Origin: Eledone cirrhosa | Lineage: Eukaryota | Assembly: GCA_964016885.1 (NCBI GenBank) | Contig: OZ024744.1 | Coordinates: forward strand, 5,642,001 to 5,706,000 | DNA length: 64,000 nt | Reading direction: 5' to 3' | Part shown: in pieces, positions 1,545 through 55,010 of the stretch | Layout of the letters: every line of letters starts with the position of its first letter | How positions within the stretch are numbered: the stretch's first letter is position 1 | Made by a program: the position numbers and the translations under genes | Notes under the pieces: model-generated | Databases searched by the model: none | Seen by the model: the letters and a program-made list of their open reading frames with translations, nothing else | What the model was told of the DNA's origin: nothing

Positions 1545-1555
1545 CTCTATATATA

Positions 1556-2686
1556 TAGGTACCAATCAGTACGAAACATAGCTCTGTCAGCTTCATCTCT
1601 TCTGTTTGCTAAAAAATGTAAAGTAAGTGAGACTGTCACTACTCTCAAACAATAGCATAACGTAAAGGAAATGCTTTTAATTAAGCATACGGTGTATTGC
1701 AAAATACACTATATATACATTCACATATATATAGCTATTTCAGAGCGCCAATTCTAATTTTCAATTTCTACTTGACCGGCAACCGCACTGTATAATCAGT
1801 TCCTGATTATTACTAGAAATTCTATAAGAATCAAACATTCATAATTTTCAGCAAACAGGTGGAGTACTTGGTTTTGATAAGTACCAATCAGTACGAAACA
1901 TAGCCCTGTCAGCTTTATCTCCCCTGTTTCCTGAAAATTTAAAGTAAGTGAGACTGTCACTACTCTAAAACAGTAGCATAAGGTAAATGAAATGCTGCTA
2001 ATTAAGCATACAGTGTATTGAAAAATACACTATATATACATTCACATATATATAGCTATTTCAGAGCGCCAATTCTAATTTTAAATTTCTGCTTGACCGG
2101 CAACCGCTCTGTATAATCAGTTCCCGATTATTACTAGAAATTCTATAAGAAGAAAAATTTTAGGTTCTTCAGCAAACAGGTGGAGTACTTGGCTTTGATA
2201 AGTACCAATCAGTACGAAACATAGCCCTGTCAGCTTTATCTCCCCTGTTTGCTGAAAATTTAAAGTAAGTGAGAGTGACACTACTTTAAAACAATAGCAT
2301 AAGGTCTTCGAAATGCTTTTAATTAAGCATACAGTGTATTGCAAAATACACTATATATACATTCATATATATATATCGCTATTTCAGAGCACCAATTCTA
2401 ATTTACAATTTCTACTTGACCGGCAACCGCTCTGTATAGTATATTCAGATCTTGATTATTACTAGAAATTCTATAAGAATAAAAAAATTCATGATTTTCA
2501 GCAAACAGGTGGAGTACTTGGCTTTGATAAGTACCAATCAGTACGAAACATAGCTCTGTCAGCTTTATCTCCCCTGTTTGCTGAAAATTTAAAGTGAGAC
2601 TGTCACTACTCTAAAACAATAGTAGAAGGTCTTCGAAATGCTTTTAATTAAGCATACAGTGTATTGCAAAATATACTATATATACA

Positions 2687-2771
<85 letters not shown>

Positions 2772-4685
2772 CTATTTCAGAACGCCAATTCTAATTTTCA
2801 ATTTCTGCTTGACCAGCAAACGCTCAGTATAATCAGATCCTGATTATTACTAAAAATTCTATAAGAATCAAACATTCATGATTTTCAGCAAACAGGTGGA
2901 GTACTTGGCTTTGATAAGTACCAATCAGTACGAAACATAGCTCTGTCAGCTTTATCTCCTCTGTTTGCGAAAATTTATTGTAAGTGAGACTGACACTACT
3001 CTAAAACAATAGCATAAGGTCTTCGAAATGCTTTTAATTAAGCATACAGTTATTTGCAAAATACACTATATATACATTCATATATATATCGCTATTTAAG
3101 AGCGCCAATTCTAATTTTCAATTTCTGCTTGACCGGCAACCGCTCTGTATAATCAGTTCCTGATAATTACTAGAAATTCTATAAGAATCAAACATTCATG
3201 GTTTTCAGCAAACAGGTGGAGTACTTGGCTTTGATAAGTACCCATCAGTACGAAACATAGCTTTGTCAGCTTTATCTCCCCTGTTTGCTGAAAATTTAAA
3301 GTAAGTGAGACAGTCACTACTCTAAAGCAATAGCATAAGGTTTTCGAAATGCTTTTAATTAAGCATACAGTGTATTGCAAAATACACTATATATACATTC
3401 ATATATATATCGCTATTTCAGAGCGCCAATTCTAATTTTCAATTTCTGCTTGACCGGCAACAGCTCTGTATAATCAGATCCTGATTATTACTAGAAATTC
3501 TATAAGAATAAAGAATTCATGATTTTCAGCAAACAGGTGGAGTACATGGCTTTGATAGGTACCAATCAGTACGAAACATAGCTCTGTCAGCTTTATCTCT
3601 TCTGTTTGCTAAAAAATGTAAAGTAAGTGAGACTGTCACTACTCTCAAACAATAGCATAACGTAAAGGAAATGCTTTTAATTAAGCATACGGTGTATTGC
3701 AAAATACACTATATATACATTCACATATATATAGCTATTTCAGAGCGCCAATTCTAATTTTCAATTTCTGCTTGACCGGCAACCGCACTGTATAATCAGT
3801 TCCTGATTATTACTAGAAATTCTATAAGAATCAAACATTCATAATTTTCAGCAAACAGGTGGAGTACTTGGTTTTGATAAGTACCAATCAGTACGAAACA
3901 TAGCCCTGTCAGCTTTATCTCCCCTGTTTCCTGAAAATTTAAAGTAAGTGAGACTGTCACTACTCTAAAACTATAGCATAAGGTAAATGAAATGCTGCTA
4001 ATTAAGCATACAGTGTATTGCAAAATACACTATATATACATTCACATATATATAGCTATTTCAGAGCGCCAATTCTAATTTTAAATTTCTGCTTGACCTG
4101 CAACCGCTCTGTATAATCAGTTCCCGATTATTACTAGAAATTCTATAAGAATAAAAATTTTAGGTTTTCAGCAAACAGATGGAGTACTTGGCTTTGATAA
4201 GTACCAATCAGTACGAAACATAGCCCTGTCAGCTTTATCTCCCCTGTTTGCTGAAAATTTAAAGTAAGTGAGAGTGACACTACTTTAAAACAATAGCATA
4301 AGGTCTTCGAAATGCTTTTAATTAAGCATACAGTGTATTGCAAAATACACTATATATACATTCATATATATATATCGCTATTTCAGAGCACCAATTCTAA
4401 TTTACAATTTCTACTTGACCGGCAACCGCTCTGTATAGTATATTCAGATCCTGATTATTACTACAAATTCTATAAGAATAAAAAAATTCATGATTTTCAG
4501 CAAACAGGTGGCGTACTTGGCTTTGATAATTACCAATCAGTACGAAACATAGCTCTGTCAGCTTTATCTCCCCTGTTTGCTGAAAATTTAAAGTGAGACT
4601 GTCACTACTCTAAAACAATAGTAGAAGGTCTTCGAAATGCTTCTAATTAAGCATACAGTGTATTGCAAAATATACTATATATACA

Positions 4686-4780
<95 letters not shown>

Positions 4781-6697
4781 CTATTTCAGAACGCCAATTC
4801 TAATTTTCAATTTCTGCTTGACCAGCAAACGCTCTGTATAATCAGATCCTGATTATTACTAAGAATTCTATAAGAATCAAACATTCATGATTTTCAGCAA
4901 ACAGGTGGAGTACTTGGCTTTGATAAGTACCAATCAGTACGAAACATAGCTCTGTCAGCTTTATCTCCAATGTTTGCTGAAAATTTATTGTAAGTGAGAC
5001 TGACACTCTCTAAAACAATAGCATAAGGTCTTCGAAATGCTTTTAAATGAGCATACAGTTATTTGCAAAATACACTATATATACATTCATATATATATCG
5101 CTATTTAAGAGCGCCAATTCTAATTTTCAATTTCTGCTTGACCGGCAACCGCTCTGTATAATCAGTTCCTGATAATTACTAGAAATTCTATAAGAATCAA
5201 ACATTCATGGTTTTCAGCAAACAGGTGGAGTACTTGGCTTTGATAAGTACCCATCAGTACGAGACATAGCTCTGTCAGCTTTATCTCCCCTGTTTGCTGA
5301 AAATTTAAAGTAAGTGAGACAGTCACTACTCTAAAGCAATAGCATAAGGTTTTCGAAATGCTTTTAATTAAGCATACAGTGTATTGCAAAATACACTATA
5401 TATACATTCATATATATATCGCTATTTCAGAGCGCCAATTCTAATTTTCAATTTCTGCTTGACCGGCAACAGCTCTGTATAATCAGATCCTGATTATTAC
5501 TAGAAATTCTATAAGAATAAAAAATTCATGATTTTCAGCAAACAGGTGGAGTACTTGGCTTTGATAGGTACCAATCAGTACGAAACATAGCTCTGTCAGC
5601 TTTATCACTTCTGTTTGCTAAAAAATGTAAAGTAAGTGAGACTGTCACTACTCTCAATCAATAGCATAACGTAAAGGAAATGCTTTTAATTAAGCATACG
5701 GTGTATTGCAAAATACACTATATATACATTCACATATATATAGCTATTTCAGAGCGCCAATTCTAATTTTTACAATTTCTGCTTGACCGGCAACCGCACT
5801 GTATAATCAGTTCCTGATTATTACTAGAAATTCTATGAGAATCAAACATTCATAATTTTCAGCAAACAGGTGGAGTACTTGGTTTTGATAAGTACCAATC
5901 AGTACGAAACATAGCCCTGTCAGCTTTATCTCCCCTGTTTCCTGAAAATTTAAAGTAAGTGAGACTGTCACTACTCTAAAACAATAGCATAAGGTAAATG
6001 AAATGCTGCTAATTAAGCATACAGTGTATTGCAAAATACACTATATATACATTCACATATATATAGCTATTTCAGAGCGCCAATTCTAATTTTAAATTTC
6101 TGCTTGACCGGCAACCGCTCTGTATAATCAGTTCCCGATTATTACTAGAAATTCTATAAGAATAAAAATTTTAGGTTTTTCAGCAAACAGATGGAGTACT
6201 TGGCTTTGATAAGTACCAATCAGTACGAAACATAGCCCTGTCAGCTTTATCTCCCCTGTTTGCTGAAAATTTAAAGTAAGTGAGAGTGACACTACTTTAA
6301 AACAATAGCATAAGGTCTTCGAAATGCTTTTAATTAAGCATACAGTGTATTGCAAAATACACTATATATACATTCATATATATATATCGCTATTTCAGAG
6401 CACCAATTCTAATTTACAATTTCTACTTGACCGGCAACCGCTCTGTATAGTATATTCATATCCTGATTATTACTAGAAATTCTATAAGAATAAAAAAATT
6501 CATGATTTTCAGCAAACAGGTGGAGTACTTGGCTTTGATAAGTACCAATCAGTACGAAACATAGCTCTGTCAGCTTTATCTCCCCTGTTTGCTGAAAATT
6601 TAAAGTGAGACTGTCACTACTCTAAAACAATAGTAGAAGGTCTTCGAAATGCTTTTAATTAAGCATACAGTGTATTGCAAAATATACTATATATACA

Positions 6698-6788
<91 letters not shown>

Positions 6789-9700
6789 CTATTTCAGAAC
6801 GCCAATTCTAATTTTCAATTTCTGCTTGACCAGCAAACGCTCTCTATAATCAGATCCTGATTATTACTAAAAATTCTATAAGAATCAAACATTCATGATT
6901 TTCAGCAAACAGGTGGAGTACTTGGCTTTGATAAGTACCAATCAGTACGAAACATAGCTCTGTCAGCTTTATCTCCTCTGTTTGCTGAAAATTTATTGTA
7001 AGTGAGACTGACACTACTCTAAAACAATAGCATAAGGTCTTCGAAATGCTTTTAATTAAGCATACAGTTATTTGCAAAATACACTATATATACATTCATA
7101 TATATATCGCTATTTAAGAGCGCCAATTCTAATTTTCAATTTCTGCTTGACCGGCAACCGCTCTGTATAATCAGTTCCTGATAATTACTAGAAATTCTAT
7201 AAGAATCAAACATTCATGGTTTTCAGCAAACAGGTGGAGTACTTGGCTTTGATAAGTACCCATCAGTACGAAACATAGCTCTGTCAGCTTTATCTCCCCT
7301 GTTTGCTGAAAATTTAAAGTAAGTGAGACAGTCACTACTCTAAAGCAATAGCATAAGGTTTTCGAAATGCTTTTAATTAAGCATACAGTGTATTGCAAAA
7401 TACACTATATATACATTCATATATATATCGTTATTTCAGGGCGCCAATTCTAATTTTCAATTTCTGATTGACCGGCAACAGCTCTGTATAATCAGATCCT
7501 GATTATTACTAGAAATTCTATAAGAATAAAAAATTCATGATTTTCAGCAAACAGGTGGAGTACTTGGCTTTGATAGGTACCAATCAGCACGAAACATAGC
7601 TCTGTCAGCTTTATCTCTCCTGTTTGCGGAAAATGTAAAGTAAGTGAGAATGTCACTACTCTCAAACAATAGCATAACGTAAAGGAAATGCTTTTAATTA
7701 AGCATACGGTGTATTGCAAAATACACTATATATACATTCACATATATATAGCTATTTCAGAGCGCCAATTCTAATTTTCAATTTCTGCTTGACCGGCAAC
7801 CGCACTGTATAATCAGTACCTGATTATTACTAGAAATTCTATAAGAATCAAACATTCATAATTTTCAGCAAACAGGTGGAGTACTTGGTTTTGATAAGTA
7901 CCAATCAGTACCAAACATTGCCCTGTCAGCTTTATCTCCCCTGTTTCCTGAAAATTTAAAGTAAGTGAGACTGTCACTACTCTAAAACAATAGCATAAGG
8001 TAAATGAAATGCTGCTAATTAAGCATACAGTGTATTGCAAAATACACTATATATACATTCACATATATATAGCTATTTCAGAGCGCCAATTCTAATTTTA
8101 AATTTCTGCTTGACCGGCAACCGCTCTGTATAATCAGTTCCCGATTATTACTAGAAATTCTATAAGAATAAAAATTTTAGGTTTTTCAGCAAACAGATGG
8201 AGTACTTGGCTTTGATAAGTACCAATCAGTACGAAACATAGCCCTGTCAGCTTTATCTCCCCTGTTTGCTGAAAATTTAAAGTAAGTGAGAGTGACACTA
8301 CTTTAAAACAATAGCATAAGGTCTTCGAAATGATTTTAATTAAGCATACAGTGTATTGCAAAATACACTATATATACATTCATATATATATATCGCTATT
8401 TCAGAGCACCAATTCTAATTTACAATTTCTACTTGACCGGCAACCGCTCTGTATAGTATATTCAGATCCTGATTATTACTAGAAATTCAATAAGAATAAA
8501 AAAAATCATGATTTTCAGCAAACAGGTGGAGTACCTGGCTTTGATAAGTACCAATCAGTACGAAACATAGCCCTGTCAGCTTTATCTCTCCTGTTTGCTG
8601 AAAATGTAATGTAAGTGAGACTGTCACTACTCTAAAAGAATAGCATAAGGTCATCGAAATGCTTTTAATTAAGCATACAGTGTATTGCAAAATACACTAT
8701 ATATACATTCATATATATATCGCTATCTCATAGCGCCAATTCTAATTTTCTATTTCTGCTTGACCGGCAACCGCTCTGTATAGTATAATCAGATCCTGAT
8801 TATTACTAGAAATTCTATAAGAATAAAAAAATTCATGATTTTCAGCAAACAGGTGGAGTACTTGGCTTTGATAAGTACCAATCAGTACGAGACATAGCTC
8901 TGTCAGCTTTATATCCCCTGTTTGCTGAAAATTTAAAGTAAGTGAGACTGACACTACACTAAACAATAGCATAAGGTCTTCGAAATGCTTTTAATTTAGC
9001 ATACAGTGTATTGCAAAGTACACTATATATATATACATATATATATATAGCTATTTCAGAGCGCCAATTCTAATTTTCAATTTCAGCTTGACCGGCAACC
9101 GCTCTGTATAATCAGATCCTGATTATTACTAGAAATTCTATAAGAATCAAACATTCATGATTTTTAGCAAACAGGTGGAGTATTTGTTTTTGATAAGTAC
9201 CAATCAGTACGAAACATAGCTCTGTCAGCTTTGTCTCCCCTGTTTGCTGAAAATTTAAAGTAAGTGAGACTGTTACTACTCTAAAACAATAGCATAAGGT
9301 CATCGAAATGCTTTTAATTAAGCATACAGTGTATTGCAAAATACACTATATATATACATTCATATATATATATAGTTATTTCAGATCGCCAATTCTAATT
9401 TTTAATATCTGCTTGACCGGCAACCGCTCTGTATAATCAGATCCTGATTATTACTAGAAATTCTATAAGAATCAAACATTCATGATTTTCAGCAAGTAGG
9501 TGGAGTATTTGGCTTTGATAAGTACCAATCAGTACGAAACATAGCTCTGTCAGATTTATCTCCCCTGTTTGCTGAAAATATAAAGTAAGTGAGACTGTCA
9601 CTACTCTAAAAGAATAGCATAAGGTCATCGAAATGCTTTTAATTAAGCATACAGTGTATTGCAAAATACACTATATATACATTCATATATATATCGCTAT

Positions 9701-12700
9701 TTCATAGCGTCAATTCTAATTTTCTATTTCTGCTTGACCGGCAACCGCTCTGTATAGTATAATCAGATCCTGATTATTACTAGAAATTCTATAAGAATAA
9801 AAAAATTCATGATTTTCAGCAAACAGGTGGAGTACTTGGCTTTGATAAGTACCAATCAGTACGAAACATAACTCTGTCAGCTTTATCTCCACTGTTTGCT
9901 GAAAATTTATTGTAAGTGAGACTGACACTCTCTAAAACAATAGCATAAGGTCTTCGAAATGCTTTTAATTAAGCATACAGTTATTTGCAAAATACACTAT
10001 ATATACATTCATATATATATCGCTATTTCAGAGCGCCAATTCTAATTTTCAATTTCTGCTTGACCGGCAACCGCACTGTATAATCAGTTCCTGATTATTA
10101 CTAGAAATTCTATGAGAATCAAACATTCATAATTTTCAGCAAACAGGTGGAGTACTTGGTTTTGATAAGTACCAATCAGTACGAAACATAGTTCTGTCAG
10201 CTTTATCTCCCCTGTTTGCCGAAAATTTAAAGTAAGTGAGACAGTCACTACTCTAAAGCAATAGCATAAGGTTTTCGAAATGCTTTTAATTAAGCATACA
10301 GTGTATTGCAAAATACACTATATATACATTCATATATATATCGCTATTTCAGAGCGCCAATTCTAATTTTCAATTTCTGCTTGACCGGCAACAGCTCTGT
10401 ATAATCAGATCCTGATTATTACTAGAAATTCTATAAGAATAAAAAATTCATGATTTTCAGCAAACAGGTGGAGTACTTGGCTTTGATAGGTACCAATCAG
10501 TACGAAACATAGCTCTGTCAGCTTTATCTCTTCTGTTTGCTAAAAAATTGTAAAGTAAGTGAGACTGTCACTACTCTCAAACAATAGCATAACGTAAAGG
10601 AAATGCTTTTAATTAAGCATACGGTGTATTGCAAAATACACTATATATACATTCACATATATATAGCTATTTCAGAACGCCAATTCTAATTTTCAATTTC
10701 TGCTTGACCAGCAAACGCTCTGTATAATCAGATCCTGATTATTACTAAACATTCTATAAGAATCAAACATTCATGGTTTTCGGCAAACAGGTGGAGTACT
10801 TGGCTTTGATAAGTACCCATCAGTACGAAACATAGCTCTGTCAGCTTTATCTCCCCTGTTTGCTGAAAATTTAAAGTAAGTGACACAGTCACTACTCTAA
10901 AGCAATAGCATAAGGTTTTCGAAATGCTTTTAATTAAGCATACAGTGTATTGCAAAATACACTATATATACATTCATATATATATCGCTATTTCAGAGCG
11001 CCAACTCTAATTTTCAATTTCTGCTTGACCGGCAACAGCTCTGTATAATCAGATCCTGATTATTACTAGAAATTCTATAAGAATAAAAAATTCATGATTT
11101 TCAGCAAACAGGTGGAGTACTTGGTTTTGATAAGTACCAATCAGTACGAAACATTGCCCTGTCAGCTTTATCTCCCCTGTTTCCTGAAAATTTAAAGTAA
11201 GTGAGACTGTCACTACTCTCAAACAATAGCATAACGTAAAGGAAATGCTTTTAATTAAGCATACGGTGTATTGCAAAATACACTATATATACATTCACAT
11301 ATATATAGCAATTTCAGAGCGCCAATTCTAATTTTCAATTTCTGCTTGACCGGCAACCGCACTGTATAATCAGTTCCTGATTATTACTAGAAATTCTATA
11401 AGAATCAAACATTCATAATTTTCAGCAAACAGGTGGAGTACTTGGTTTTGATAAGTACCAATCAGTACGAAACATTGCCCTGTCAGCTTTATCTCCCCTG
11501 TTTCCTGAAAATTTAAAGTAAGTGAGACTGTCACTACTCTAAAACAATAGCATAAGGTAAATGAAATGCTGCTAATTAAGCATACAGCGTATTGCAAAAT
11601 ACACTATATATACATTCACATATATATAGCTATTTCAGAGCGCCAATTCTAATTTTAAATTACTGCTTGACCGGCAACCGCTCTGTATAATCAGTTCCCG
11701 ATTATTACTAGACATTCTATAAGAATAAAAATTTTAGGTTTTTCAGCAAACAGATGGAGTACTTGGCTTTGATAATTACCAATCAGCACGAAACATAGCC
11801 CTGTCAGCTTTATCTCCCCTGTTTGCTGAAAATTTAAAGTAAGTGAGAGTGACACTACTTTAAAACACTAGCATAAGGTCTTCGAAATGCTTTTAATTAA
11901 GCATACAGTGTATTGCAAAATACACTATATATACATTCATATATATATATCGCTATTTCAGAGCACCAATTCTAATTTACAATTTCTACTTGACCGGCAA
12001 CCGCTCTGTATAGTATATTCAGATCCTGATTATTACTAGAAATTCAATAAGAATAAAAAAAATCATGATTTTCAGCAAACAGGTGGAGTACCTGGCTTTG
12101 ATAAGTACCAATCAGTACGAAACATAGCCCTGTCAGCTTTATCTCCCCTGTTTGCTGAAAATGTAATGTAAGTGAGACTGACACTACTCTAAAACAATAG
12201 CATAAGGTCTTCGAAATGCTTTTAATTAAGCATACAGTGTATTGCAAAATACACTATATATACATTCATATATATATCGCTATTTCAGAGCGCCAATTCT
12301 AATTTTCAATATCTGCTTGACCGGCAACCGCTCTGTATAATCAGATCCTGATTATTATTAGAAATTCTATAAGAATCAAACATTCATGATGTTCAGCAAG
12401 CAGGTGGAGTATTTGGCTTTGAAAAGTACCCATCAGTACGAAACATAGCTCTGTCAGATTTATCTCCCCTGTTTGCTGAAAATATAAAGTAAGTGAGACT
12501 GTCACTACTCTAAAAGAATAGCATAAGGTCATCGAAATGCTTTTAATTAAGCATACAGTGTATTGCAAAATACACTATATATACATTCATATATATATCG
12601 CTATTTCATAGCGCCAATTCTAATTTTCTATTTCTGCTTGACCGGCAACCGCTCTGTATAGTATAATCAGATCCTGATTATTACTAGAAATTCTATAAGA

Positions 12701-13882
12701 ATAAAAAAATTCATGATTTTCAGCAAACAGGTGGAGTACTTGGCTTTGATAAGTACCAATCAGTACGAAACATAGCTCTGTCAGCTTTATATCCCCTGTT
12801 TGCTGAAAATTTAAAGTAAGTGAGACTGACACTACACTAAACAATAGCATAAGGTCTTCGAAATGCTTTTAATTAAGCATACAGTGTATTGCAAAGTACA
12901 CTATATATATATTCATATATATATATAGCTATTTCAGAGCGCCAATTCTAATTTTCAATTTCAGCTTGACCGGCAACCGCTCTGTATAATCAGATCCTGA
13001 TTATTACTAGAAATTTTATAAGAATCAAGCATTCATGATTTTTAGCAAACAGGTGGAGTACCTGGCTTTGATAAGTACCAATCAGTACGAAACATAGCTG
13101 TGTCAGATTTGTCTCCCCTGTTTGCTGAAAATTTAAAGTAAGTGAGACTGTTACTACTCTAAAATAATAGCATAAGGTCATCGAAATGCTTTTAATTAAG
13201 CATACAGTGTATTGCAAAATACACTATATATATACATTCATATATATATATAGTTATTTCAGATCGCCAATTCTAATTTTCAATATCTGCTTGACTAGCA
13301 ACCGCTCTGTATAATCAGATCCTGATTATTACTAGAAATTCTATAAGAATCAAACATTCATGATTTTCAGCAAGTAGGTGGAGTATTTGGCTTTGATAAG
13401 TACCCATCAGTACGAAACATAGCTCTGTCAGATTTATCTCCCCTGTTTGCTGAAAATATAAAGTAAGTGAGACTGTCACTACTCTAAAAGAATAGCATAA
13501 GGTCATCGAAATGCTTTTAATTAAGCATACAGTGTATTGCAAAATACACTATATATACATTCATATATATATCGCTATTTCATAGCGCCAATTCTAATTT
13601 TCTATTTCTGCTTGACCGGCAACCGCTCTGTATAGTATAATCAGATCCTGATTATTACTAGAAATTCTATAAGAATAAAAAAATTCATGATTTTCAGCAA
13701 ACAGGTGTAGTACTTGGCTTTGATAAGTACCAATGAGTACGAAACATAGCTCTGTCAGCTTTATCTCCCCTGTTTGCTGAAAATTTAAAGTGAGACTGTC
13801 ACTACTCTAAAACAATAGTACAATGTCTTCGAAATACTTTTAATTAAGCATACAGTGTATTGCAAAATATACTATATATACA

Positions 13883-13945
<63 letters not shown>

Positions 13946-14579
13946 CTATTTAATAGCGCCAATTCTAATTTTCTATTTCTGCTCGACCGGCAACCGCTCT
14001 GTATAGTATAATCAGATCCTGATTATTACTAAAAATTCTATAAGAATCAAGCATTCATGATTTTCAGCAAGCAGGTGGAGTATTTGGCTTTGATAAGTAC
14101 CCATCAGTACGAAACATAGCTCTGTCAGATTTATCTCCCCTGTTTGCTGAAAATATAAAGTAAGTGAGACTGTCACTACTCTAAAAGAATAGCATAAGTT
14201 CATCGAAATGCTTTTAATTAAGCATACAGTGTATTGCAAAATACACTATATATACATTCATATATATATCACTATTTCATAGCGCCAATTCTAATTTTCT
14301 ATTTCTGCTTGACCGGCAACCGCTCTGTATAGTATAATCAGATCCTGATTATTACTAGAAATTCTATAAGAATAAAAAAATTCATGATTTTCAGCAAACA
14401 GGTGGAGTACTTGGCTTTGATAAGTACCAATCAGTACGAAACATAGCTCTGTCAGCTTTATCTACCCTGTTTGCTGAAAATTTAAAGTGAGACTGTCACT
14501 ACTCTAAAACAATAGTACAAGGTCTTCGAAATGCTTTTAATTAAGCATACAGTGTATTGCAAAATATACTATATATACA

Positions 14580-14632
<53 letters not shown>

Positions 14633-15568
14633 CTATTTCAGAGCGCCAATTCTAATTTTCAATTTCCGCTTGACCAGCAAACGCTCTGTATAATCAGATC
14701 CTGATTATTACTAAAAATTCTATAAGAATCAAACATTCATGATTTTCAGCAAACAGGTGGAGTACTTAGCTTTGATAAGTACCAATCAGTACGAAACATA
14801 ACTCTGTCAGCTTTATCTCCCCTGTTTGCTGAAAATGTAAAGTAAGTGAGACTGACACTACTTTAAAACAATAGCATAAGGTCTTCGAAATGCTTTTAAT
14901 TAAGCATACAGTGTATTGCAAAATACACTATATATACATTTATATATATATCGCTATTCCAGAGCGCCAATTCTAATTTTCAAATTCTGCTTGACCGGCA
15001 ACCGCTCTGTATAATCAGATCCTGATTATTACTAGAAATTCTACAAGAATCAAACATTCATGATGTTTAGCAAACAGGTGGAGTATTTGGCTTTCATAAG
15101 TACCAATCAGTACGAAACATAACCCTGTCAGCTTTATCTCCCCTGTTTCCTGAAAATTTAAAGTAAGTGAGACTGTCACTACTCTAAAACAATAGCATAA
15201 AGGTCATCGAAATGCTTTTAATTAAGCATACAGTGTATTGCAAAATACACTATATATACATTCATATATATATCGCTATTTCAGAGCACCATTTCTAATT
15301 TTCAATTTCTGTTTGACCGGGAACCGCTCTGTATAATCAGATCCTGATTATTACTAGAAATTCTATAAGAATCAAAATTTAAAGTTTTTCAGCAAACAGG
15401 TGGAATACTTGGCTTTGATAAGTACCAATCAGTACGAAACATAGCTCTGTCAGCTTTATCTCCCCTGTTTGCTGAAAATGTAAAGTAAGTGAGACTGACA
15501 CTGCTCTAAAACAATAGCATAAGGTCTTCGAAATGCTTTTAATTAAGCATACAGTGTATTGCCAAATA

Positions 15569-15575
<7 letters not shown>
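1556..15575 (+). repeat. Tandem array of 43 monomers of about 321 bp carrying type I hammerhead ribozymes (retrozyme-like satellite)
   Basis: GTACGAAACATAG or a close variant recurs 43 times at about 321-329 bp spacing, longer where the internal (AT)n is expanded. Consensus HHR is GGCT-TTGATAA-GTAC-CAATCA-GTAC-GAAA-CATAGCTCTG-TC-AGCT. The first unit is truncated inside the core. Confidence 0.93.
2495..2587 (+). ncRNA. Representative type I hammerhead ribozyme of the array (monomer 4)
   Basis: Distal stem I TTTTCAGCAAACAGG/CCTGTTTGCTGAAAA (15 bp), then GGAG/CTCC, an internal loop and GGCT/AGCT. Core TTGATAA (2524-2530), stem II GTAC/GTAC, GAAA (2545-2548), stem III ACA/TGT. Predicted cut GUC|A after 2560. 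Confidence 0.88.
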
Positions 15576-15642
<67 letters not shown>

Positions 15643-27273: not shown

Positions 27274-30200
27274 CTACAGGCGCATGATCAGAGTAGACCC
27301 ACTCACACGGGCCATTCTCGCCACATTCACCCACATTTCAGCAAATGTACTAAGGGGCAACACTTCTCTGTCCACCGTCACCTTCCTTTCAGGTGAAATT
27401 TGAAAAGGTTGAGAGATTGGCCGAAGAGAAAAGTGTCTGTCTTCAGTCCTTTCAATCTCGTCCACCATACAACCTCTTTCGCTACTGCCACCAGACAGAG
27501 GAAAATTGCCTGCCCTTCCTGGCCAAAAGAAGGCGGCGGGTCGATCTTCACTATGGACTCGGCCGATAGCCGGATCCGTTCTACACGCGACAACAGCTAT
27601 TCAACATAACTCCATAAGTCAGTAATGCACGGACACTGGACGATGCGTGCAGAACAGTTTCGTCGCTCTGCGCGCATCTCGGGCAGGTCCGTCTGACAGT
27701 ACTTCCGTGCCTGTAGAGTTTATCCCGAACCGGCAGTGCCCTCCCGTAGCACTGCCAAGCGAGGGATTTTTGGAAATTATCCATCGTCTCAGGCTCGAAA
27801 GTCCTCCAGTACAGACTGGTTAGTTCGACTTCGTGGACTCCCAGAGCCTCTCCGAGTGCCTCGTCGCACTTGCCCACCACTAATCCTCTATAGAACTCGA
27901 GAGTGGAAGTTCCACTGACCGCATTGCCCGCCTGGTAGAGAGCAGTGAGTGCCTGGCAACATTCTAGATGCCGGTCACCCAGTCTTGGTCTCTTCTTGAC
28001 CCAGGACTGCAACTCAGTCAAAGAAACGAGCTACGGAAGGCCCGTCTGACAAACGGCGACAACACCTGTTCACCGTTTAGGTAGAATATCTGGAGATGTC
28101 GCAGCCTCAGCGCATGCCCGCGCATCATTAGCCACGGCATGCCCAGCCCTCCACGTAGAGGGTGCTGGCAGCAGATGGACCGCCTCACCAGCGGAACCTG
28201 ACCCTCCACAAGAATTTGAAGCGAAGCCGCTCCAAGATGGTGAGGCGCGAATGGGGGCACCTCCGCCCGACCTTTCAGTGATAGCTTCATCCCAGCCCAT
28301 TTCTGGATGAGACTGACTACCCTGCCCGCCACCTCGTCCCAATTCTTATCCACCTGGAGGTCTGGCCCAAACCAAACCCCTAGCAACTTTACCGGTCCGT
28401 CCGTTCAGCGCCTAACGACGCTGTTGGACGGCATGGACTTGCCTCCCCAGGGGCCGAGTTGCAAGCCCACTGACTTTTCTGGGTTAAGTTTTGCTCCCGT
28501 CAACCTTTCATATTCCTCCAATAAGTTGCCGACCACCTCGATTTCTGAGGTGTCCGACACCATCACGATATGTCGTCCGCATGAGCCGACACAGCCTTTC
28601 CGCGTCCCGGTTCGAGCGGGAAGCCCTGCAACAGCTCCAGCTTCCGCAGTAAAGGCTCGAGAGTCAATACGTACAGAGGGGAGGGGAGAGGGCACCCTTG
28701 ATGGACCGATCGGGAGACCTGAAACGGTTCCGAGAGGTGGCCATTAATTTTGACCATCGAGCAGGTGCTGCTGTGCATTGCAGCGAACCAGCTTCTGAAG
28801 ACGGGGCCGAAGCCAGCCGCCTTGAGGACAGCCTCCAGATACCGATGGTCGACCCTATCGTATGCTTTCGATTGATCTAAATTTATCAGAGCCCCACCGA
28901 AGCCAGGTTTACACCCTACCCTATCTATGATGTATCGCATCAGGTGGAGATTGTCGTGTATGGACCTGGTTGGGATTGTGCAAGTTTGCGCCTCCCCAAC
29001 CAAATCCCCGACGACAAGCGCCAACTTCTTCGCTAACACACTGGCCACAATTTTAAAATCTGTGTTGAGCAGAGTTATGGGCCTGAAATTGTCTAATGTG
29101 TCCCTCTTGTTCTCGTCTTTCCTTATCAGCGTCACTACGCCCCAGCTCACAGAACTGGGAATACTCCCGTTTTGCTACCAGTTGCAGTAGAGGGCTTCGA
29201 GGCGATTAGAGAACAAGTCTGGCATATTTACGTAAAGCTCGTAGGGCAGACCATCCGAACCGGGTGACTTGCGCCTCATGCAGCCTACAAGTAATTGGCC
29301 TTTCGCAGTGCCCGGCATCAGCCGTCGAGAGTTGCGACTAGCCATCGAGGTAGCGACTGAAGTCCGCCACCATCTCTGACCCGCCTTTTCCCCCGAACAA
29401 CCGAGCAAAATGTTGGCGAAAGGCCTCACACATCCTCTTGGAATCACTCAGCTCGTGCCCGTCTCGGTACGTCAAAGACCGAATCGTGGTTTAATTACCA
29501 CGCTGCGCCTCTGCCACGAGGGCCCATTGAACAGCTTTGGTTCCCTCGTTTCTCAGAGCACGCGCCTTAGCTCTGACAATGCAACCTTCGTGTTTCGCAT
29601 TGAAGAAATGGTCTAATGCCATTCTCGCCGCTAGTACGTCAGTTGCAATGCCACTACCAATAGCCTCGTCTAACTTATCTACCGGCTCCCCCTCCTTTCT
29701 ATTTTTCTCTAACGCTACTTCTTTGCTAAACTCTATCGACATTACTTTAATCTCTCTTTTGAGAGTCCCCCACCATCTATTGTTGACGACTCTCCCTGTC
29801 AGCTTTTTCTTAACTAAATTGTTGACCTGGTCCCTGTAAGCCTTACGTGCCGTAAATTACATGTTTAGCTTCCAGTAACCAGGTCCTAACCTACGCGTCT
29901 TATCTAGGTCGACCATACAGATCTGAATAGGCGACCGTTTCAAAACGTGGACAGCTTACACTATTTCTGTCTATTTTCCTAATGAATATCCTGTCTATAT
30001 ACGATCTAGATGACCCTATGCGGTTAGCCCAGGTCCACACTGGCGCATTAGGGAAATCTAGTCGGTACCTGTCAGACAGTTGAACTGGCAGATCAGGTTC
30101 TTGAGGCTTTTGCACCCCCCGCTCCTATCGGATACTCCCACACAGTCCCAGCGTGCGTCTAAGATGCCGTTCCAGTCCCCCGCTAACAGTAAAGGGCGAG

Positions 30201-30597
30201 ACGGACCCAGAAGGGCTTCCAGGCGTCTAAAGAAGTCCGGCCGTCCTTCCCCAGTAGGAGCATAGACGGCCACCAGTCTAAAGGCACCACCTTCATTATT
30301 GTTCACGTCCAGGACCACCAACTTCCCGTCCGGGTCCCGGAAGATCGACCTTACATCGAGATCCAGGCCTTTCCTAAACAGCACTGCCACCCCGCCTCCC
30401 ATTCCCGGCCGGCTAACAGATGCAAAGATCTGATAGTCGTCGAAAATGGGGGCTAGTGCGCGCGTGTCGGAAATCCTGGTCTCGCTGACTGCAATTACAT
30501 CCATTTCTATAGACCCGAGGTCGTTGTGCAGGTGACCCTGCTTCCAGGACGATCCCAGGCCTCGAACATTTAAACATCCTACTCTTAATACGGCCAT
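27274..30597 (-). pseudogene. LINE ORF2 (AP endonuclease + reverse transcriptase), disrupted
   Basis: ORF track pieces 30058-30597, 29900-30115, 28563-29150, 28018-28386 and 27581-28021 are collinear parts of one ORF2. Confidence 0.88.
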
Positions 30598-30628
30598 GTT
30601 GGCAGGTTAAACAGAGAGAGAGGTTAGT

Positions 30629-32591: not shown

Positions 32592-32855
32592 GTTTTATTT
32601 TCTTCGTAAATTTTTTAACATGTAAAAAAAAAAGTTCAAATATTTGGGCCAAAAGGCCCAAATATTATACTTTCCCCTTCACGGGGCAAAGTCTAAGGGC
32701 TTATATCCTTTACACAAGAAATAGTTAACAATAAATAATTTAAACAGGCAAATAAAGCGACTTACTGTGAGGGAGCAAAATACGTCCGCTTAGACCAATA
32801 ATAATAATAAATAAATAAATTATTGTATCTGAAGCTCTCTTCCACCGTGGAAATA

Positions 32856-35015
32856 TTAAGGAAGGATGTCTGTATATTACATATAAGAAATATTAAGGAA
32901 GGATGTCTGTATATTACATATAAGAAATATAAGGAAGGATGTCTGTATATTACATATAAGTAATATAAGGAAGGATGTCTGTATATTACATATAAGACAT
33001 ATAAGGAAGGATGTCTGTATATTACATATAAGTAATATAAGGAAGGATGTCTGTATATTACATATAAGTAATATAAGGAAGGATGTCTGTATATTACATA
33101 TAAGTAATATAAGGAAGGATGTCTGTATATTACATATAAGAAATATAAGGAAGGATGTCTGTATATTACATATAAGTAATATAAGGAAGGATGTCTGTAT
33201 ATTACATATAAGTAATATAAGGAAGGATGTCTGTATATTACATATAAGAAATATAAGGAAGGATGTCTGTATAGTACATATAAGTAATATAAGGAAGGAT
33301 GTCTGTATATTACATATAAGTAATATAAGGAAGGATGTCTGTATATTACATATAAGAAATATAAGGAAGGATGTCTGTATATTACATATAAGAAATATAA
33401 GGAAGGATGTCTGTATAGTACATATAAGTAATATAAGGAAGGATGTCTGTATATTACATATAAGAAATATAAGGAAGGATGTCTGTATATTACATATAAG
33501 AAATATAAGGAAGGATGTCTGTATAGTACATATAAGTAATATAAGGAAGGATGTCTGTATATTACATATAAGAAATATAAGGAAGGATGTCTGTATATTA
33601 CATATAAGAAATATAAGGAAGGATGTCTGTATATTACATATAAGAAATATAAGGAAGGATGTCTGTATATTACATATAAGTAATATAAGGAAGGATGTCT
33701 GTATATTACATATAAGAAATATAAGGAAGGATGTCTGTATATTACATATAAGAAATATAAGGAAGGATGTCTGTATATTACATATAAGAAATATAAGGAA
33801 GGATGTCTGTATATTACATATAAGAAATATAAGGAAGGATGTCTGTATATTACATATAAGAAATATAAGGAAGGATGTCTGTATATTACATATAAGAAAT
33901 ATAAGGAAGGATGTCTGTATATTACATATAAGTAATATAAGGAAGGATGTCTGTATATTACATATAAGAAATATAAGGAAGGATGTCTGTATATTACATA
34001 TAAGAAATATAAGGAAGGATGTCTGTATATTACATATAAGAAATATAAGGAAGGATGTCTGTATAGTACATATAAGAAATATAAGGAAGGATGTCTGTAT
34101 ATTACATATAAGAAATATAAGGAAGGATGTCTGTATAGTACATATAAGTAATATAAGGAAGGATGTCTGTATATTACATATAAGTAATATAAGGAAGGAT
34201 GTCTGTATATTACATATAAGAAATATAAGGAAGGATGTCTGTATAGTACATATAAGTAATATAAGGAAGGATGTCTGTATATTACATATAAGAAATATAA
34301 GGAAGGATGTCTGTATAGTACATATAAGTAATATAAGGAAGGATGTCTGTATAGTACATATAAGTAATATAAGGAAGGATGTCTGTATATTACATATAAG
34401 TAATATAAGGAAGGATGTCTGTATATTACATATAAGTAATATAAGGAAGGATGTCTGTATAGTACATATAAGTAATATAAGGAAGGATGTCTGTATATTA
34501 CATATAAGAAATATAAGGAAGGATGTCTGTATATTACATATAAGTAATATAAGGAAGGATGTCTGTATAGTACATATAAGTAATATAAGGAAGGATGTCT
34601 GTATAGTACATATAAGTAATATAAGGAAGGATGTCTGTATATTACATATAAGTAATATAAGGAAGGATGTCTGTATATTACATATAAGTAATATAAGGAA
34701 GGATGTCTGTATAGTACATATAAGTAATATAAGGAAGGATGTCTGTATATTACATATAAGTAATATAAGGAAGGATGTCTGTATAGTACATATAAGTAAT
34801 ATAAGGAAGGATGTCTGTATATTACATATAAGTAATATAAGGAAGGATGTCTGTATATTACATATAAGTAATATAAGGAAGGATGTCTGTATATTACATA
34901 TAAGTAATATAAGGAAGGATGTCTGTATAGTACATATAAGTAATATAAGGAAGGATGTCTGTATATTACATATAAGTAATATAAGGAAGGATGTCTGTAT
35001 ATTACATATAAGTAA
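32856..35015. repeat. 36-bp minisatellite, about 60 copies
   Basis: Unit ATAAGGAAGGATGTCTGTATATTACATATAAGTAAT with two main polymorphic sites and no spacers. Confidence 0.95.
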
Positions 35016-35099
35016 CACAACACAAACAGACTGAACAGACAAATAACAAACACAATACATTGTATTGGCTACAACCGCAACAGCTCCCTCACTACAGAA

Positions 35100-38000
35100 C
35101 CACTACCCTATCTCTACCACCACTACCCTAAATCCACCACCACTACCACTACCCTATCTCTACCACCACTACCCTAAATCCACCACCACTACCACTACCC
35201 TATCTCTACCACCACTACCCTAAATCCACCACCACTACCACTGCCCTATCTCTACCACCACTACCCTAACTCCACCACCACTACCACTACCCTAATTCTA
35301 CCACCACTACCACTACCCTATATCCACCACCACTACCACTACCCTATCTCTACCACCACTACCCTAAATCCACCACCACTACCACTGCCCTATCTCTACC
35401 ACCACTACCCTAACTCCACCACCACTACCACTGCCCTATCTCCACCACCACTACCACTACCCTATATCCACCACCACTACCCTAACTCCACCACCACTAC
35501 CACTACCCTATCTCTACCACCACTACCCTAACTCCACCACCACTACCACTGCCCTATCTCCACCACCACTACCACTACCCTATATCCACCACCACTACCC
35601 TAACTCCACCACCACTACCACTACCCTATCTCTACCACCACTACCCTAACTCCACCACCACTACCACTGCCCTATCTCCACCACCACTACCACTACCCTA
35701 TATCCACCACCACTACCCTAACTCCACCACCACTACCACTACCCTATCTCCACCACCACTACCCTAACTCCACCACCACTACCACTACCCTATCTCTACC
35801 ACCACTACTCTAACTCCACCACCACTACCACTACCCTAATTCTACCACCACTACCACTACCCTATATCCACCACCACCACCACCACTACCACTACCCTAT
35901 CTCTACAACCACCACCACTACTCTACCACCACCACCACTACCACTACATTATCTCCACCACCACTACCACTACCCTATCACCACCACCACTACCACTACC
36001 CTAACTCTACCACCACCACCACTACCACTACCCTATCTCCACTACCACCACCCTATCTCCACCACCACTACCACTACCCTATCTCCACCACCACTACCAC
36101 TACCCTATCTCCACCACCACCACCACTACCACCACCCTATCTCCACCACCACTACCACTACCCTAACTCTACCACCACCACCACTACCACCACCCTATCT
36201 CCACCACCACTACCACTACCCTGTCTCTACCACCACTACCACTACCACCACCCTATCTCCACCACCACTACCACTACCCTAACTCTACCACCACCACCAC
36301 TACCACTACCCTATCTCCACCACCACTACCACTACCCTATCTCCACCACCACCACCACTACCACCACCCTATCTCCACCACCCTATCTCCACCACCACTA
36401 CCACTACCCTAACTCTACCACCACCACCACTACCACTACCCTATCTCCACCACCACTACCACTACCCTATCTCCACTACCACCACCCTATCTCCACCACC
36501 ACCACCACTACCCTATCTCCACCACCACTACCACTACCCTATCTCCACCACCACTACCCTATCTCCACCACCACTACCACTACCCTGTCTCTACCACCAC
36601 TACCACTACCACCGCCCTATCTCCACCACCACTACCACTACCCTATCTCCACTACCACTACCCTATCTCCACCACCACTACCACTACCCTATCTCCACTA
36701 CCACCACCCTATCTCCACCACCACTACCACTACCCTGTCTCTACCACCACTACCACTACCACCGCCCTATCTCCACCACCACTACCACTACCCTATCTCC
36801 ACTACCACTACCCTATCTCCACCACCACTACCACTACCCTATCTCCACTACCACCACCCTATCTCCACCACCACTACCACTACCCTGTCTCTACCACCAC
36901 TACCACTACCACCGCCCTATCTCCACCACCACTACCACTACCCTATCTCCACTACCACTACCCTATCTCCACCACCACTACCACTACCCTATCTCCACTA
37001 CCACTACCCTATCTCCACTACCACTACCCTATCTCCACCACCACTACCACTACCCTATCTCCACTACCACTACCCTATCTCCACTACCACTACCCTATCT
37101 CCACCACCACTACCCTATCTCCACCACCACTACCACTACCCTATCTCCACTACCACTACCCTATCTCCACTACCACTACCCTATCTCCACCACCACTACC
37201 ACTACCCTATCTCCACTACCACTACCCTATCTCCACTACCACTACCCTATCTCCACCACCACTACCCTATCTCCACCACCACTACCACTACCCTATCTCC
37301 ACTACCACTACCCTATCTCCACTACCACCACCCTATCTCCACCACCACCACCACTACCCTATCTCCACCACCACTACCACTACCCTATCTCCACCACCAC
37401 TACCCTATCTCCACCACCACTACCACTACCCTATCTCCACTACCACTACCCTATCTCCACTACCACTACCCTATCTCCACTACCACTACCCTATCTCCAC
37501 CACCACTACCACTACCCTATCTCCACTACCACTACCCTATCTCCACTACCACTACCCTATCTCCACCACCACTACCACTACCCTATCTCCACTACCACTA
37601 CCCTATCTCCACCACCACTACCACTACCCTATCTCCACTACCACTACCCTATCTCCACCACCACTACCACTAACCTAACTCTACCACCACCACCACTACC
37701 ACTACCCTATCTCCACTACCACCACCCTATCTCCACCACCACTACCACTAACCTAACTCTACCACCACCACCACTACCACTACACTATCTCCACTACCAC
37801 TACCCTATCTCCACCACCACTACCACTACCCTATCTCCACCACCACTACCACTAACCTAACTCTACCACCACCACCACTACCACTACCCTGTCTCTACCA
37901 CCACTACCACTACCACCGCCCTATCTCCACCACCACTACCACTACCCTATCTCCACTACCACCACCCTATCTCCACCACCACTACCACTACCCTATCTCC

Positions 38001-38856
38001 ACCACCACTACCACTAACCTAACTCTACCACCACCACCACTACCACTACCCTGTCTCTACCACCACTACCACTACCACCGCCCTATCTCCACCACCACTA
38101 CCACTACCCTATCTCCACTACCACCACCCTATCTCCACCACCACTACCACTACCCTATCTCCACCACCACTACCACTAACCTAACTCTACCACCACCACC
38201 ACTACCACTACCCTGTCTCTACCACCACTACCACTACCACCGCCCTATCTCCACCACCACTACCACTACCCTATCTCTACCACCACTACCACTACCACTA
38301 CCCTATCTCCACCACCACTACCACTAACCTAACTCTACCACCACCACCACTACCACTACCCTATCTCCACTACCACCACCCTATCTCCACCACCACTACC
38401 ACTACCCTGTCTCTACCACCACCACCACTACCACTACCCTATCTCCACCACCACTACCACTAACCTAACTCTACCACCACCACCACTACCACTACCCTAT
38501 CTCCACTACCACCACCCTATCTCCACCACCACTACCACTACCCTGTCTCTACCACCACCACCACTACCACTACCCTATCTCCACCACCACTACCACTAAC
38601 CTAACTCTACCACCACCACCACTACCACTACACTATCTCCACCACCACTACCACTACCCTATCACCACCACCACTAGCACCACCATCATTCCCCCACCGC
38701 CACCACTACTCCACCACCACCACCACCACTACTACTCCACCACTACCACCACCACTATTCCCCCACCGCCACCACTACTCCACCACCACCACTACCACTA
38801 CTCCACCACCACCGCCACGACTACTGCACCAACACTACCACCACCACCACCACCAC
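35100..38856. repeat. C-rich (CCA/CTA)-based satellite with mainly 20- and 26-bp units
   Basis: Units CCCTATCTCCACTACCACTA and CCCTATCTCCACCACCACTACCACTA, with CCCTAA variants; extreme C/G strand skew. Confidence 0.92.
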
Positions 38857-39708: not shown

Positions 39709-39802
39709 TCCCTTGACAAGTTCTGCTATTTATTTACCAGGCTAAAAATTTTAATTTAGTCCAGAAATAGCCGTCGAAACAGCTTGAGCTCTGCCGTCGG
39801 GG
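39709..39802 (+). ncRNA. Degenerate type I HHR (U3-A8), PLE pseudo-LTR family also at 793-870, 41567-41620 and 50632-50810
   Basis: TCCC-TTGACAA-G...GCTATTT...AAATAGCCGTC-GAAA-C...G-TC-GGGG. Other copies give the intact stem III CGGCT/AGCCG. Confidence 0.5.
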
Positions 39803-39890
39803 TCATATTTTTTCCTATTACCCACTCTACTACCCTAAGTATTGAGGACTCAGGTGCGTTATGGTCCAGCTGGTTCCTTACCACAATTCC

Positions 39891-39925
<35 letters not shown>

Positions 39926-39930
<5 letters not shown>

Positions 39931-40262
39931 ATTAGGATTGGTGCTCTGAAATAGCGATGTATACATGAATATATGTATAGATATTTGGCAATATACTTTA
40001 TGCTTAATTACAAACACTTTGAAGACCTTGCGCTATTATTTTAAATTAGTGACTATGTCGCTTACTTCTTTTTTCAACAAACAAAGGGAGATAAGCTGAC
40101 AGATCTGTTTCACACTGTTGGTGTTCATCAGAGCTTAGCACTCGCCGATGTTTGTTGAAAATTATAGATGCTGGATTCTTCTAGAATTCCAGTAATAATC
40201 AGGAACTGATTATACAGAGCGCTTGCCGGTCCAGTTCAGAGCACCAATCCTAATTTTCAATT
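39926..40262 (-). mobile_element. Solo diverged monomer of the HHR satellite (dispersed retrozyme-like insertion)
   Basis: Reverse complement is collinear with the 321-bp monomer; abuts (AT)n; 25-bp inverted terminal duplication at 39926-39950 / 40235-40259. Confidence 0.88.
40071..40161 (-). ncRNA. Canonical type I hammerhead ribozyme in the solo monomer
   Basis: Minus strand TTTTCAACAAACA...AAGCT-CTGATGA-ACAC-CAACA-GTGT-GAAA-CAGATCTG-TC-AGCTT...TGTTTGTTGAAAA; predicted cut between 40098 and 40097. Confidence 0.9.
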
Positions 40263-40264
40263 TT

Positions 40265-41322
40265 TGGAGTCAGGCACCACTGTGGGGTTTGGAGGCCGCA
40301 CGAAAACAGGCAAGGCGGTGCTGGTCGAGCTGGTGCGTGAGCCTGTCTGAGGCCAGATTGCACTCGATGGCATCCCAAGTGGTTTGAGAGGACTTGACGT
40401 CAACAGGGGGAGAAGGATGAGGGACGTTTACTGGGCTAAGTCCCAGCCGGTCCCATATATCACAGGCGGCCTCACGTTCTCTGAACACAGAGGGTTCTAT
40501 TGTGTTTAGAAGAACCCTGCTGACAAGGTTGCGGCACGAGATTACCGACGAAAGATACGCCGGCAAAGCCAGTGAGATCGGGGGCGGGAGGCCAAGGCCA
40601 CCATACCTGACAGGTAAAGTAGCCTGTTGGCATCCAATGTCCTCAAACTTGAAGTTGCATATCTCCTCGGCTGCTGCTCGGATACAAGTATCGAGGTCAA
40701 CGAGGAGAGATGTCTGAGTGTAGCATGGAGCGCTGCGGAGTGTATAGAGGAGCTTCGGCATGACGAAGCAGTTTCTCAACAGAAAGAGGGCTGGGTGGCC
40801 TTCGATCAAGCCCAGTCGGCTCGTGAGAGTTTGGAGTTATTGAAGCCTGGACCTGATGGTGGAGCAGATGGCTGGCGGGTGGATCGGTGACCCGAGGATG
40901 AGAACATCCTATTTAGGGGTCACCTGTACCTGGTGGAGAATGGACCGCACGTCCGAGACGGAGGCTGCAAAGCTCTCAGCATGGTGGCTGACATTCACCA
41001 CCTCCGACTTGGCCGAGTTGACCTGGAGGCCGATGCCCGCCAGGGCAGGAACCAGCGATTGTAGGTCATCAACGTAGCATCATCCAGATACCAAACATTG
41101 AGAGCGGCAGTGATACTCCGAACGATGTAGTCTATACCAAGGGCAAACAAGAGGGGTCCCAAAGGGTCGCCCTGTTGAACCCCAGTGGCCAAAGGTATGA
41201 CCGTATCAGCAGCAAGGAGCATGATCGGGCCTCCATACAACAGGTAGGCCAGCGGGTAGGCAGAGGGGGCTCGGCTGAGCAGGCATCGAGCAGATGGTCC
41301 CGGCGTAAGCAGTTGAATACAG
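40265..41322 (-). pseudogene. CRE-clade non-LTR retrotransposon RT fragment
   Basis: GVQQGDPLGPLLFAL, WYLDD, ALFLLRNCF.MPKLLYTLRSAP and QATLPVRYGGLGL. Confidence 0.8.
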
Positions 41323-41328
41323 AGCTTA

Positions 41329-41558
41329 TTAGTTATGTAATAAACAACATAAGATAATTAATTCATTTACCAAAGGTTTCACGAAGGCAGACGAGCTTGA
41401 TATTTACGTCTGCCTTCAATCATCAGAAATAATTTATTAAGCTTTTGATATAAATGATTTCTAATGATTGAAGGCAGACGTAAATATCAAGCTCGTCTGC
41501 CTTCGTGAAACCTTTGGTAAATGAATTAATTATCTTATGTTGTTTATTACATAACTAA
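41329..41558. repeat. Palindrome with type I HHR on the minus strand (41361-41433)
   Basis: Arms of about 105 bp. Minus strand CTGATGA-T-TGAAGGCAGACG...CGTCTGCCTTCG-T-GAAA-CCTTTGG-TA; the plus-strand copy has CTAATGA. Confidence 0.7.

Positions 41559-50565: not shown

Positions 50566-50633
<68 letters not shown>

Positions 50634-53149: not shown

Positions 53150-53225
<76 letters not shown>

Positions 53226-53366: not shown

Positions 53367-55010
<1,644 letters not shown>

Follow-up and report, generated by a model that had tools for sequence, protein, structure and literature searches.

Hammerhead repeats in the window

The window, a 64,000-nucleotide stretch of contig OZ024744.1 of Eledone cirrhosa, contains a tandem array of hammerhead-bearing monomers on the plus strand and a single related copy on the minus strand, which belongs to subfamily S1 and is called here the S1 copy (Table 1). 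The S1 copy is 75–80% identical to the array units and carries one ribozyme only, while the array and other loci carry multiple ribozymes. The monomer contains no reading frame, and thus lacks the frame with reverse transcriptase (RT) and GIY-YIG domains of an autonomous Penelope-like element (PLE). The neighbouring frames are LINE-type RT fragments, and the S1 copy is flanked by a (TA)n tract and a LINE fragment. Broken LINE-type elements with endonuclease, RT and zf-RVT Pfam matches are located at 27584–30606 (−), 40998–41357 (−) and 60028–62398 (+). Another high-copy repeat (39765–39926, with further copies at 766–871 and 50597–50812) ends in the same (TA)n tract.

Table 1. Features of the S1 copy and the array, in window coordinates
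Feature	Position	Strand	Basis or remark
Tandem array, 321-bp monomers, subfamily A	1555..15638	+	U3-A8 core; 6-unit higher-order repeat
(TA)n target microsatellite	39894..39926	none	Adjoins 3' end of S1 copy
Retrozyme monomer, subfamily S1 (S1 copy)	39926..40234	-	309 nt, one ribozyme; 5'-truncated just under full unit
'Tail' of about 30 nt, UA-rich tract to 3' end	39926..39956	-	3'-end clusters of the family
Two hairpins 3' of ribozyme	39979..40017	-	Covary between subfamilies; mutated in S1 copy
Type I hammerhead ribozyme, extended stem I	40071..40161	-	Sequence, fold, sub-gathering Rfam HH9
Palindromic helix III, ACAGAUCUGU	40099..40108	-	Self-duplex energy
Stem II ACAC/GUGU, loop CAACA	40112..40124	-	Double changes at all four pairs across subfamilies
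Core CUGAUGA; C3 at 40131, G8 at 40126	40125..40131	-	Sequence
Inverted monomer piece, 32 nt	40235..40266	+	5' junction of S1 copy

The ribozyme of the S1 copy

Read along the minus strand from 40161 to 40071, the ribozyme has the arrangement UUUUCAACAAACA..AAGCU CUGAUGA ACAC CAACA GUGU GAA ACAGAUCUGU C AGCUU..UGUUUGUUGAAAA. It contains the type I hammerhead core (YUGANRA, GAAA, UH and an N3-N8 pair) and three helices with the open end in helix I, which are supported by covariation. Cleavage is predicted after C17 at 40098. The fold has a z-score of −4.8, and none of 200 shuffles was as good. The middle of stem I forms a 2x2 internal loop, a U·U occurs at the base of stem II in 32 of the 44 copies of this group, and the active fold lies above the predicted minimum by 4.0 kcal/mol (2.3 kcal/mol in the array). 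The S1 copy is most likely inactive.

At the gathering threshold, Rfam reports no hammerhead within the window. The best match of the S1-copy ribozyme is Hammerhead_HH9 (RF02275, clan CL00010; E=0.0018), with which it shares the type I topology, the core, a CAA-rich loop II and a stem I bulge, the whole model being aligned. However, the score of 23.1 bits is below the gathering score of 52, and the ribozyme is part of a mobile repeat here, whereas HH9 is a single conserved intronic ribozyme of vertebrates. The S1-copy ribozyme is not a member of this Rfam family.

An earlier note on this DNA had reported that the single copy differs from the array by a U3-A8 to C3-G8 replacement, by stem II ACAC/GUGU in place of GUAC/GUAC and by changes in distal stem I. 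All of these differences are present in the sequence: the array reads UUGAUAA, GUAC/GUAC and CAGCAAACA/UGUUUGCUG at the corresponding positions. Over the 20 pairs that the type I hammerhead model defines, the nine substitutions between the array consensus and the S1 copy result in four double-compensated pairs (G-C to A-U in distal stem I, U3-A8 to C3-G8, and two in stem II), one change from G·U to A-U, and no broken pair. Random placement kept all pairs in 14, 1223 and 3083 of 200000 trials at transition shares of 0.45, 0.9 and 1.0, respectively. The reported compensation therefore holds in that none of the 20 pairs is broken, but it does not extend to the internal loop in stem I or to the U·U at the base of stem II. 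The contrast between the array and the S1 copy represents one evolutionary path, with no independent replicates.

A genome-wide family with at least 13 subfamilies

A core pattern matched 4226 times in the 3.0 Gb genome, against 10 matches for the reversed control, and 4026 of the 4226 carry either C3-G8 (1740) or U3-A8 (2286). These counts come from exact patterns, which miss mutated copies, and are slightly inflated, since some 10 of the 100 matches at the head of one pattern listing are unrelated repeats; nine of these appear from their sequence to resemble an RT coding motif. The first-look candidates numbered 2301 for the ribozyme region of the S1 copy and 1630 for the array type. The region in the S1 copy is 94–97% identical to the best 40 of the 2301 candidates, itself excluded. 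The monomer is thus solitary within the window, as had been described, but not in the genome, which holds thousands of copies.

The family is a dispersed type I hammerhead repeat of approximately 313–321 nt with at least 13 subfamilies. It falls within the 150–450-bp range of low-GC, non-coding repeats with one type I hammerhead per unit, occurring both in tandem and dispersed, that are known as non-LTR retrozymes, and it has every retrozyme feature testable on the sequence except a score above the Rfam threshold. For the comparison of subfamilies, 60 further loci were chosen by visual inspection to be diverse, from among the first 100 matches of two pattern listings. The 202 ribozyme copies recovered were sorted by diagnostic motifs into 15 groups, a rough grouping in which about two copies are misassigned in S1. 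Groups G and S3 (two copies each), window-derived and duplicate loci, and another hammerhead family (L114–L117) were left out of the pair counts. The latter is a second, unrelated full hammerhead family with stem II GGG/CCC and helix III ACAUUAGUGU, which is dispersed in the genome and also found in the window at 46758 (+).

Covariation between subfamilies

Covariation among genome-wide homologues, which the earlier note had proposed to test, is strong between the consensuses of the 13 subfamilies. Across 21 pairs, 263 of 268 scored cells are paired and 11 pairs have changed on both sides, figures that were not reached, either one, in any of 2000 runs of neutral placement of the same 39 substitutions on the tree (transition shares 0.6 and 0.9). 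Excluded from this count were pair five of proximal stem I, a U·U in 9/13 subfamilies, and the variable central part of stem I. The five unpaired cells comprise U·U at the base of stem II in two subfamilies including S1, U·C in helix III of the array lineage, and one U·U in stem I; several successful subfamilies carry one of the first two. In 28 natural copies, 94.5% of 740 cells are paired, against 37–47% for a slid alignment, and 10 of 27 pairs are double-changed. Shuffles of these copies reached the observed paired share in 0/500 cases, the number of double-changed pairs in 35/500 and the number of pair types in 498/500.

Wobble intermediates are found, with A-U, G·U and G-C at the first distal pair. 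The non-Watson-Crick states on the ribozyme strand comprise five distinct G·U and no A·C, which favours RNA over DNA hairpin repair. Ten of the 12 core positions are invariant across the 13 subfamilies, and the remaining two swap jointly as C3-G8/U3-A8, a single event on the tree; the GUC triplet is also kept. RNAalifold recovered stem II from both alignments; the local one also gave stem I but no helix III, and the full-length one helix III but no proximal stem I.

Two hairpins 3' of the ribozyme, just upstream of the 3'-end hot spots described below, covary as well. They show the series C-G to U·G to U-A and G-C to A-U, and 174 of 174 cells are paired (6 and 70 of 2000 simulations), although these statistics are optimistic because the hairpins were chosen by eye. 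We infer that they are candidate cis signals for the reverse transcriptase.

Helix III and a possible dimeric ribozyme

The perfect palindrome of helix III, listed earlier among the changes of the single copy, is indeed present but is not peculiar to it, since perfect palindromes of 10–12 nt occur in 7 of the 12 scorable subfamily consensuses. The others contain a central mismatch or the U·C of the array lineage. Among 33 dispersed array-type copies, 11 have a perfect palindrome and 14 the mismatch of the array. The energies of the consensus helices range from +1.1 to +2.1 kcal/mol as isolated 3-bp hairpins and from −6.9 to −24.3 kcal/mol as self-duplexes; for the S1 copy the values are +1.3 and −13.6 kcal/mol. 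The inner four bases have changed from AGCU to GGCC, a paired change that occurred once and that fits the dimeric ribozyme model, because such pairing is impossible within one hairpin.

Newt satellite 2 and the schistosome satellite hammerheads form satellite-like arrays, and their hammerheads may act as dimers. The repeat described here differs from them in its longer helix III palindrome (9–12 nt) and extended stem I. The dimeric hammerhead model is described in PMC4209133, the available text of which already reports U3-A8, palindromic helix III and within-genome covariation.

The level at which selection acts

In 156 dispersed copies, private changes were found at 135/7000 stem positions and 475/25415 positions elsewhere (p=0.73). 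Of 122 one-sided private stem changes, 88 leave the pair broken, and eight private cells are double-compensated. Inserted copies decay about neutrally, and so the compensated states belong to the source lineages. These comparisons indicate that selection on the fold acts on the replicating source RNAs rather than on the S1 copy or the array. The proposal of selection on RNA structure and catalysis therefore survives for the fold, including the C3-G8/U3-A8 pair, at the level of the subfamilies sampled, but not for inserted copies, in which private stem changes occur at the background rate.

Core positions mutating as freely as the rest of the monomer had been named as evidence against such selection. 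Private changes are somewhat fewer in the core (19/1856, p=0.007), but many copies were found via the core itself. In 74 copies found by BLAST, the core (5/883) may be compared with nearby positions (51/4674, p=0.20) and with those further off (109/7711, p=0.04). The deficit is probably explained by ascertainment, while a slight copy-level constraint on the core is possible. Counting core changes in genomic copies is in any case a mis-aimed test, since selection sits on the source RNAs.

Compensation could also arise without selection on RNA, if inverted arms were repaired at the DNA level or exchanged sequence by template switching. The eight double-compensated private cells are of the kind expected, and arm-to-arm switching does occur, as junctions often use the stem I arms. 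Nevertheless, most one-sided private changes remain broken, C3-G8/U3-A8 is a lone tertiary pair outside the inverted repeats, and G·U persists through whole subfamilies with no A·C counterpart on the ribozyme strand. The strand-specific wobble and the core pair already largely refute this explanation, which is very improbable.

The array contains 42 full ribozyme copies between 1845 and 15487 on the plus strand. The identity at lag 6 is 0.981 (first 15 comparisons) against about 0.90 at other lags, and this higher-order repeat indicates growth of the array at the DNA level, through duplication of blocks of six units. Private changes in its monomers affect the stems (8/1931) and the rest (39/7713) alike (p=0.72). 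Compensation had been argued to be something that a neutral satellite would not show; once inserted, however, the array does behave as such a satellite. It most likely represents a retrozyme insertion that was later enlarged as satellite DNA. Directly after the array, an inverted pair (15640–16940, 98% over 435 bp) carries a U3-A8 hammerhead-like motif in each arm (15823 − and 16792 +) and matches both ends of a PLE locus, L168.

Compared with the consensus of its own subfamily, the S1 copy has eight substitutions and one deletion over about 255 nt, and no pair-breaking change in the ribozyme. The intact pairs and the slight core deficit would be expected if the S1 copy or the array were kept by host-level selection as a co-opted ribozyme. 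However, the array stems change about as often as the rest, and the S1 copy has a (TA)n tract on one side and a LINE fragment on the other, which makes co-option extremely improbable.

Insertion pattern

Of 109 loci examined, which are not a random sample, 107 were scored, giving 178 pieces of at least 45 nt. The 3' ends of 143 of these pieces fall into two hot spots about 30 nt apart, 74 at +132–145 and 69 at +167–177 after the cleavage site, and none is at the cut. Because the first hot spot falls within the UA-rich tract of the element itself, it is blurred by alignment into the target (TA)n. A dinucleotide repeat abuts 124 of the 143 hot-spot ends, 52 of the 107 loci have back-to-back (5') inversions, and 65 run more than 340 nt head-to-tail. 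The 5' ends were also considered as marks of the cleavage site and rejected, as 5/178 lie within 6 nt of it, mostly alignment edges or stem I template switches. The S1 copy matches the pattern of the family, having its 3' end on the second hot spot beside (TA)n and the 32-nt inverted piece at its 5' junction; 40234 is joined to 40266 across strands in contigs of other copies too (three sequencing runs of one sample).

Partial tandems, inverted 5' copies, a tail and a microsatellite target are thus all found, as in non-autonomous elements mobilised by PLEs. The accessible text of PMC8557442 gives partial tandems, inverted 5' copies, a 30–40-bp tail and microsatellite bias as PLE traits, and that of PMC11167929 relates the tail to two internal RT start sites. 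The latter source, as far as it is available, also describes a ribozyme that needs protein and whose mutants have no effect on insertion in vitro. Only one of nine retrozyme dimers tested was cleaved according to the accessible part of bioRxiv 10.64898/2026.07.22.740005.

A protein-dependent ribozyme that is dispensable for insertion in vitro, together with a cut site devoid of any 3' end or clear 5' end, raises the alternative that the fold is selected as a scaffold for the PLE protein, the ribozyme cutting little or with protein help and catalysis not being the main target. This would also accommodate the covarying hairpins beyond the ribozyme and the good conservation of the rest of the monomer (56/187 columns variable against 22/46 in stems). 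It does not readily account for the invariant core positions, the joint C3-G8/U3-A8 swap and the kept GUC, given that the N3-N8 pair is known, in the literature accessible, to matter for catalysis. The scaffold alternative is therefore unlikely.

Possible Penelope-like helper

PLEs with GIY-YIG are abundant in the genome (10595 candidates), and some have frames of 844–1096 aa containing RT. Some possess a cysteine linker like that described for Neptune in the available text of PMC8557442, and minimal U3-A8 ribozymes of their own. No terminal sequence common to the retrozyme and PLEs was found in 50 PLE loci compared out of the 10595 candidates. A PLE protein match occurs at 9 of 109 loci, and only that of L007 is upstream on the same strand. 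Two candidate helpers, L122 and L007, were rejected, being PLEs with their own ribozymes into whose (TA)n ends retrozyme copies are inserted (at 2438–2871 and 1416–1795, respectively); the position of these copies indicates that retrozymes and PLEs share a target.

The repeats might instead be detached pLTRs of an unsampled autonomous PLE. Their insertion signature is the same as that of PLEs, Xenopus retrozymes are related to pLTRs according to the accessible text of bioRxiv 10.64898/2026.07.22.740005, and the PLE comparison covered only a small part of the candidates. Against this, the 65 loci run head-to-tail past one unit, the single upstream PLE at L007 has its own ribozyme ending in (TA)n, with the repeat inserted there, and no common upstream sequence was found among 51 free 5' flanks, in which one pair matches. 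Such an origin is quite improbable, and an independently spreading retrozyme is preferred. The 3' ends of three PLEs (L121, L124 and L132) consist of TTTTCA-(TA)n, a 30–40-nt tail and (TA)n again. This architecture resembles that of the retrozyme despite no alignable sequence, and offers a lead to the helper.

Origin of the S1 copy and comparison with known retrozymes

The S1 copy is explained, with a probability of about 0.87, as an inserted non-LTR retrozyme that carries a type I hammerhead, shaped by selection on its source RNA and inserted in the manner of PLEs. The repeat represents a new family within the known class of non-LTR retrozymes, and the enzyme that moves it is most likely a Penelope-like reverse transcriptase. 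In the proposed mechanism, tandem copies would be transcribed, and two ribozymes would join by base pairing of their palindromic helices III and cleave after GUC, with the monomers possibly being circularised. The RT/GIY-YIG protein of a PLE would nick (TA)n, and reverse transcription would start at two points inside the RNA, roughly 140 and 170 nt downstream of the cut. An RT reading a circle or an uncut multimer could produce the partial tandems and 5' inversions. New subfamilies would be founded only by properly folding RNAs, leaving the covariation behind.

A more specific proposal, for which the odds seem about even, is that the PLE RT copies retrozymes in trans from two fixed internal starts 3' of the covarying hairpins, reading through uncut ribozymes and requiring no homology to the terminal repeat of the helper, and that the change from AGCU to GGCC records selection on the dimer. 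If so, PLEs would have a true structural parasite in this family, which would also serve as a natural panel for tests of retrozyme movement.

As far as their available text shows, the non-LTR retrozymes of animals (PMC7229834; bioRxiv 10.64898/2026.07.22.740005) similarly have a type I hammerhead in low-GC repeats of about 300 bp forming monomers, dimers and arrays, with several ribozyme families per genome and co-occurrence with PLEs; axolotl HHR_Amex2 also has U·U at the base of helix II. However, the sequence family described here is new, with no pLTR homologue in the 50 PLE loci, and the two-site 3' ends, (TA)n targeting and inversions were not found in the accessible text of those papers. 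PLEs with pLTR hammerheads (PMC4209133, PMC8557442 and PMC11167929, in the text available) differ from the present repeat, which has no reading frame. The PLEs of this genome carry minimal hammerheads, whereas the retrozyme has a full-size ribozyme with a long stem I. No published description of the family, in octopus or other cephalopods included, was found in the literature consulted, which was poor in subscription papers.

Since the class is known, the ribozyme itself is no surprise. The family is valuable as a test bed, because the literature accessible does not settle by which enzyme animal retrozymes are moved or whether their movement depends on cleavage. Both can be tested with natural sequences, since at least 13 subfamilies swapping core and stem pairs, defined 3' starts and long-frame PLEs occur alongside one another.

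Other repeats in the window

Minimal U3-A8 hammerheads with helix III of the ACCGGU type at 18929 (+) and 22481 (+) match the terminal repeats of long-frame PLEs (L139, L159 and L162). Another PLE-type insertion, at 53220–54890, is an inverted pair (98% over 734 bp) that contains two minimal hammerheads, one at 53458 (−) and one at 54794 (+), with helix III ACGUACGU. The hammerhead-like motif CUGAAGA..GAAA occurs at 42781 (−), at 55947 (+) and in L007, where its place within the 3' end of a GIY-YIG-like frame makes a PLE terminal repeat probable. Hammerhead-like motifs in the 17751 region (−) and at 50473 (−) match the PLE loci L161 and L167, and one at 50941 (−) is unmatched among the loci compared. 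A minisatellite of 36-bp units (60 copies, 97%) occupies 32852–35015, and a C-rich repeat of 20/26 bp, the GC skew of which is extreme, follows at 35099–38812. A tRNA-like match at 20914–20985 (−), slightly above the Rfam gathering score, is possibly the head of a SINE.
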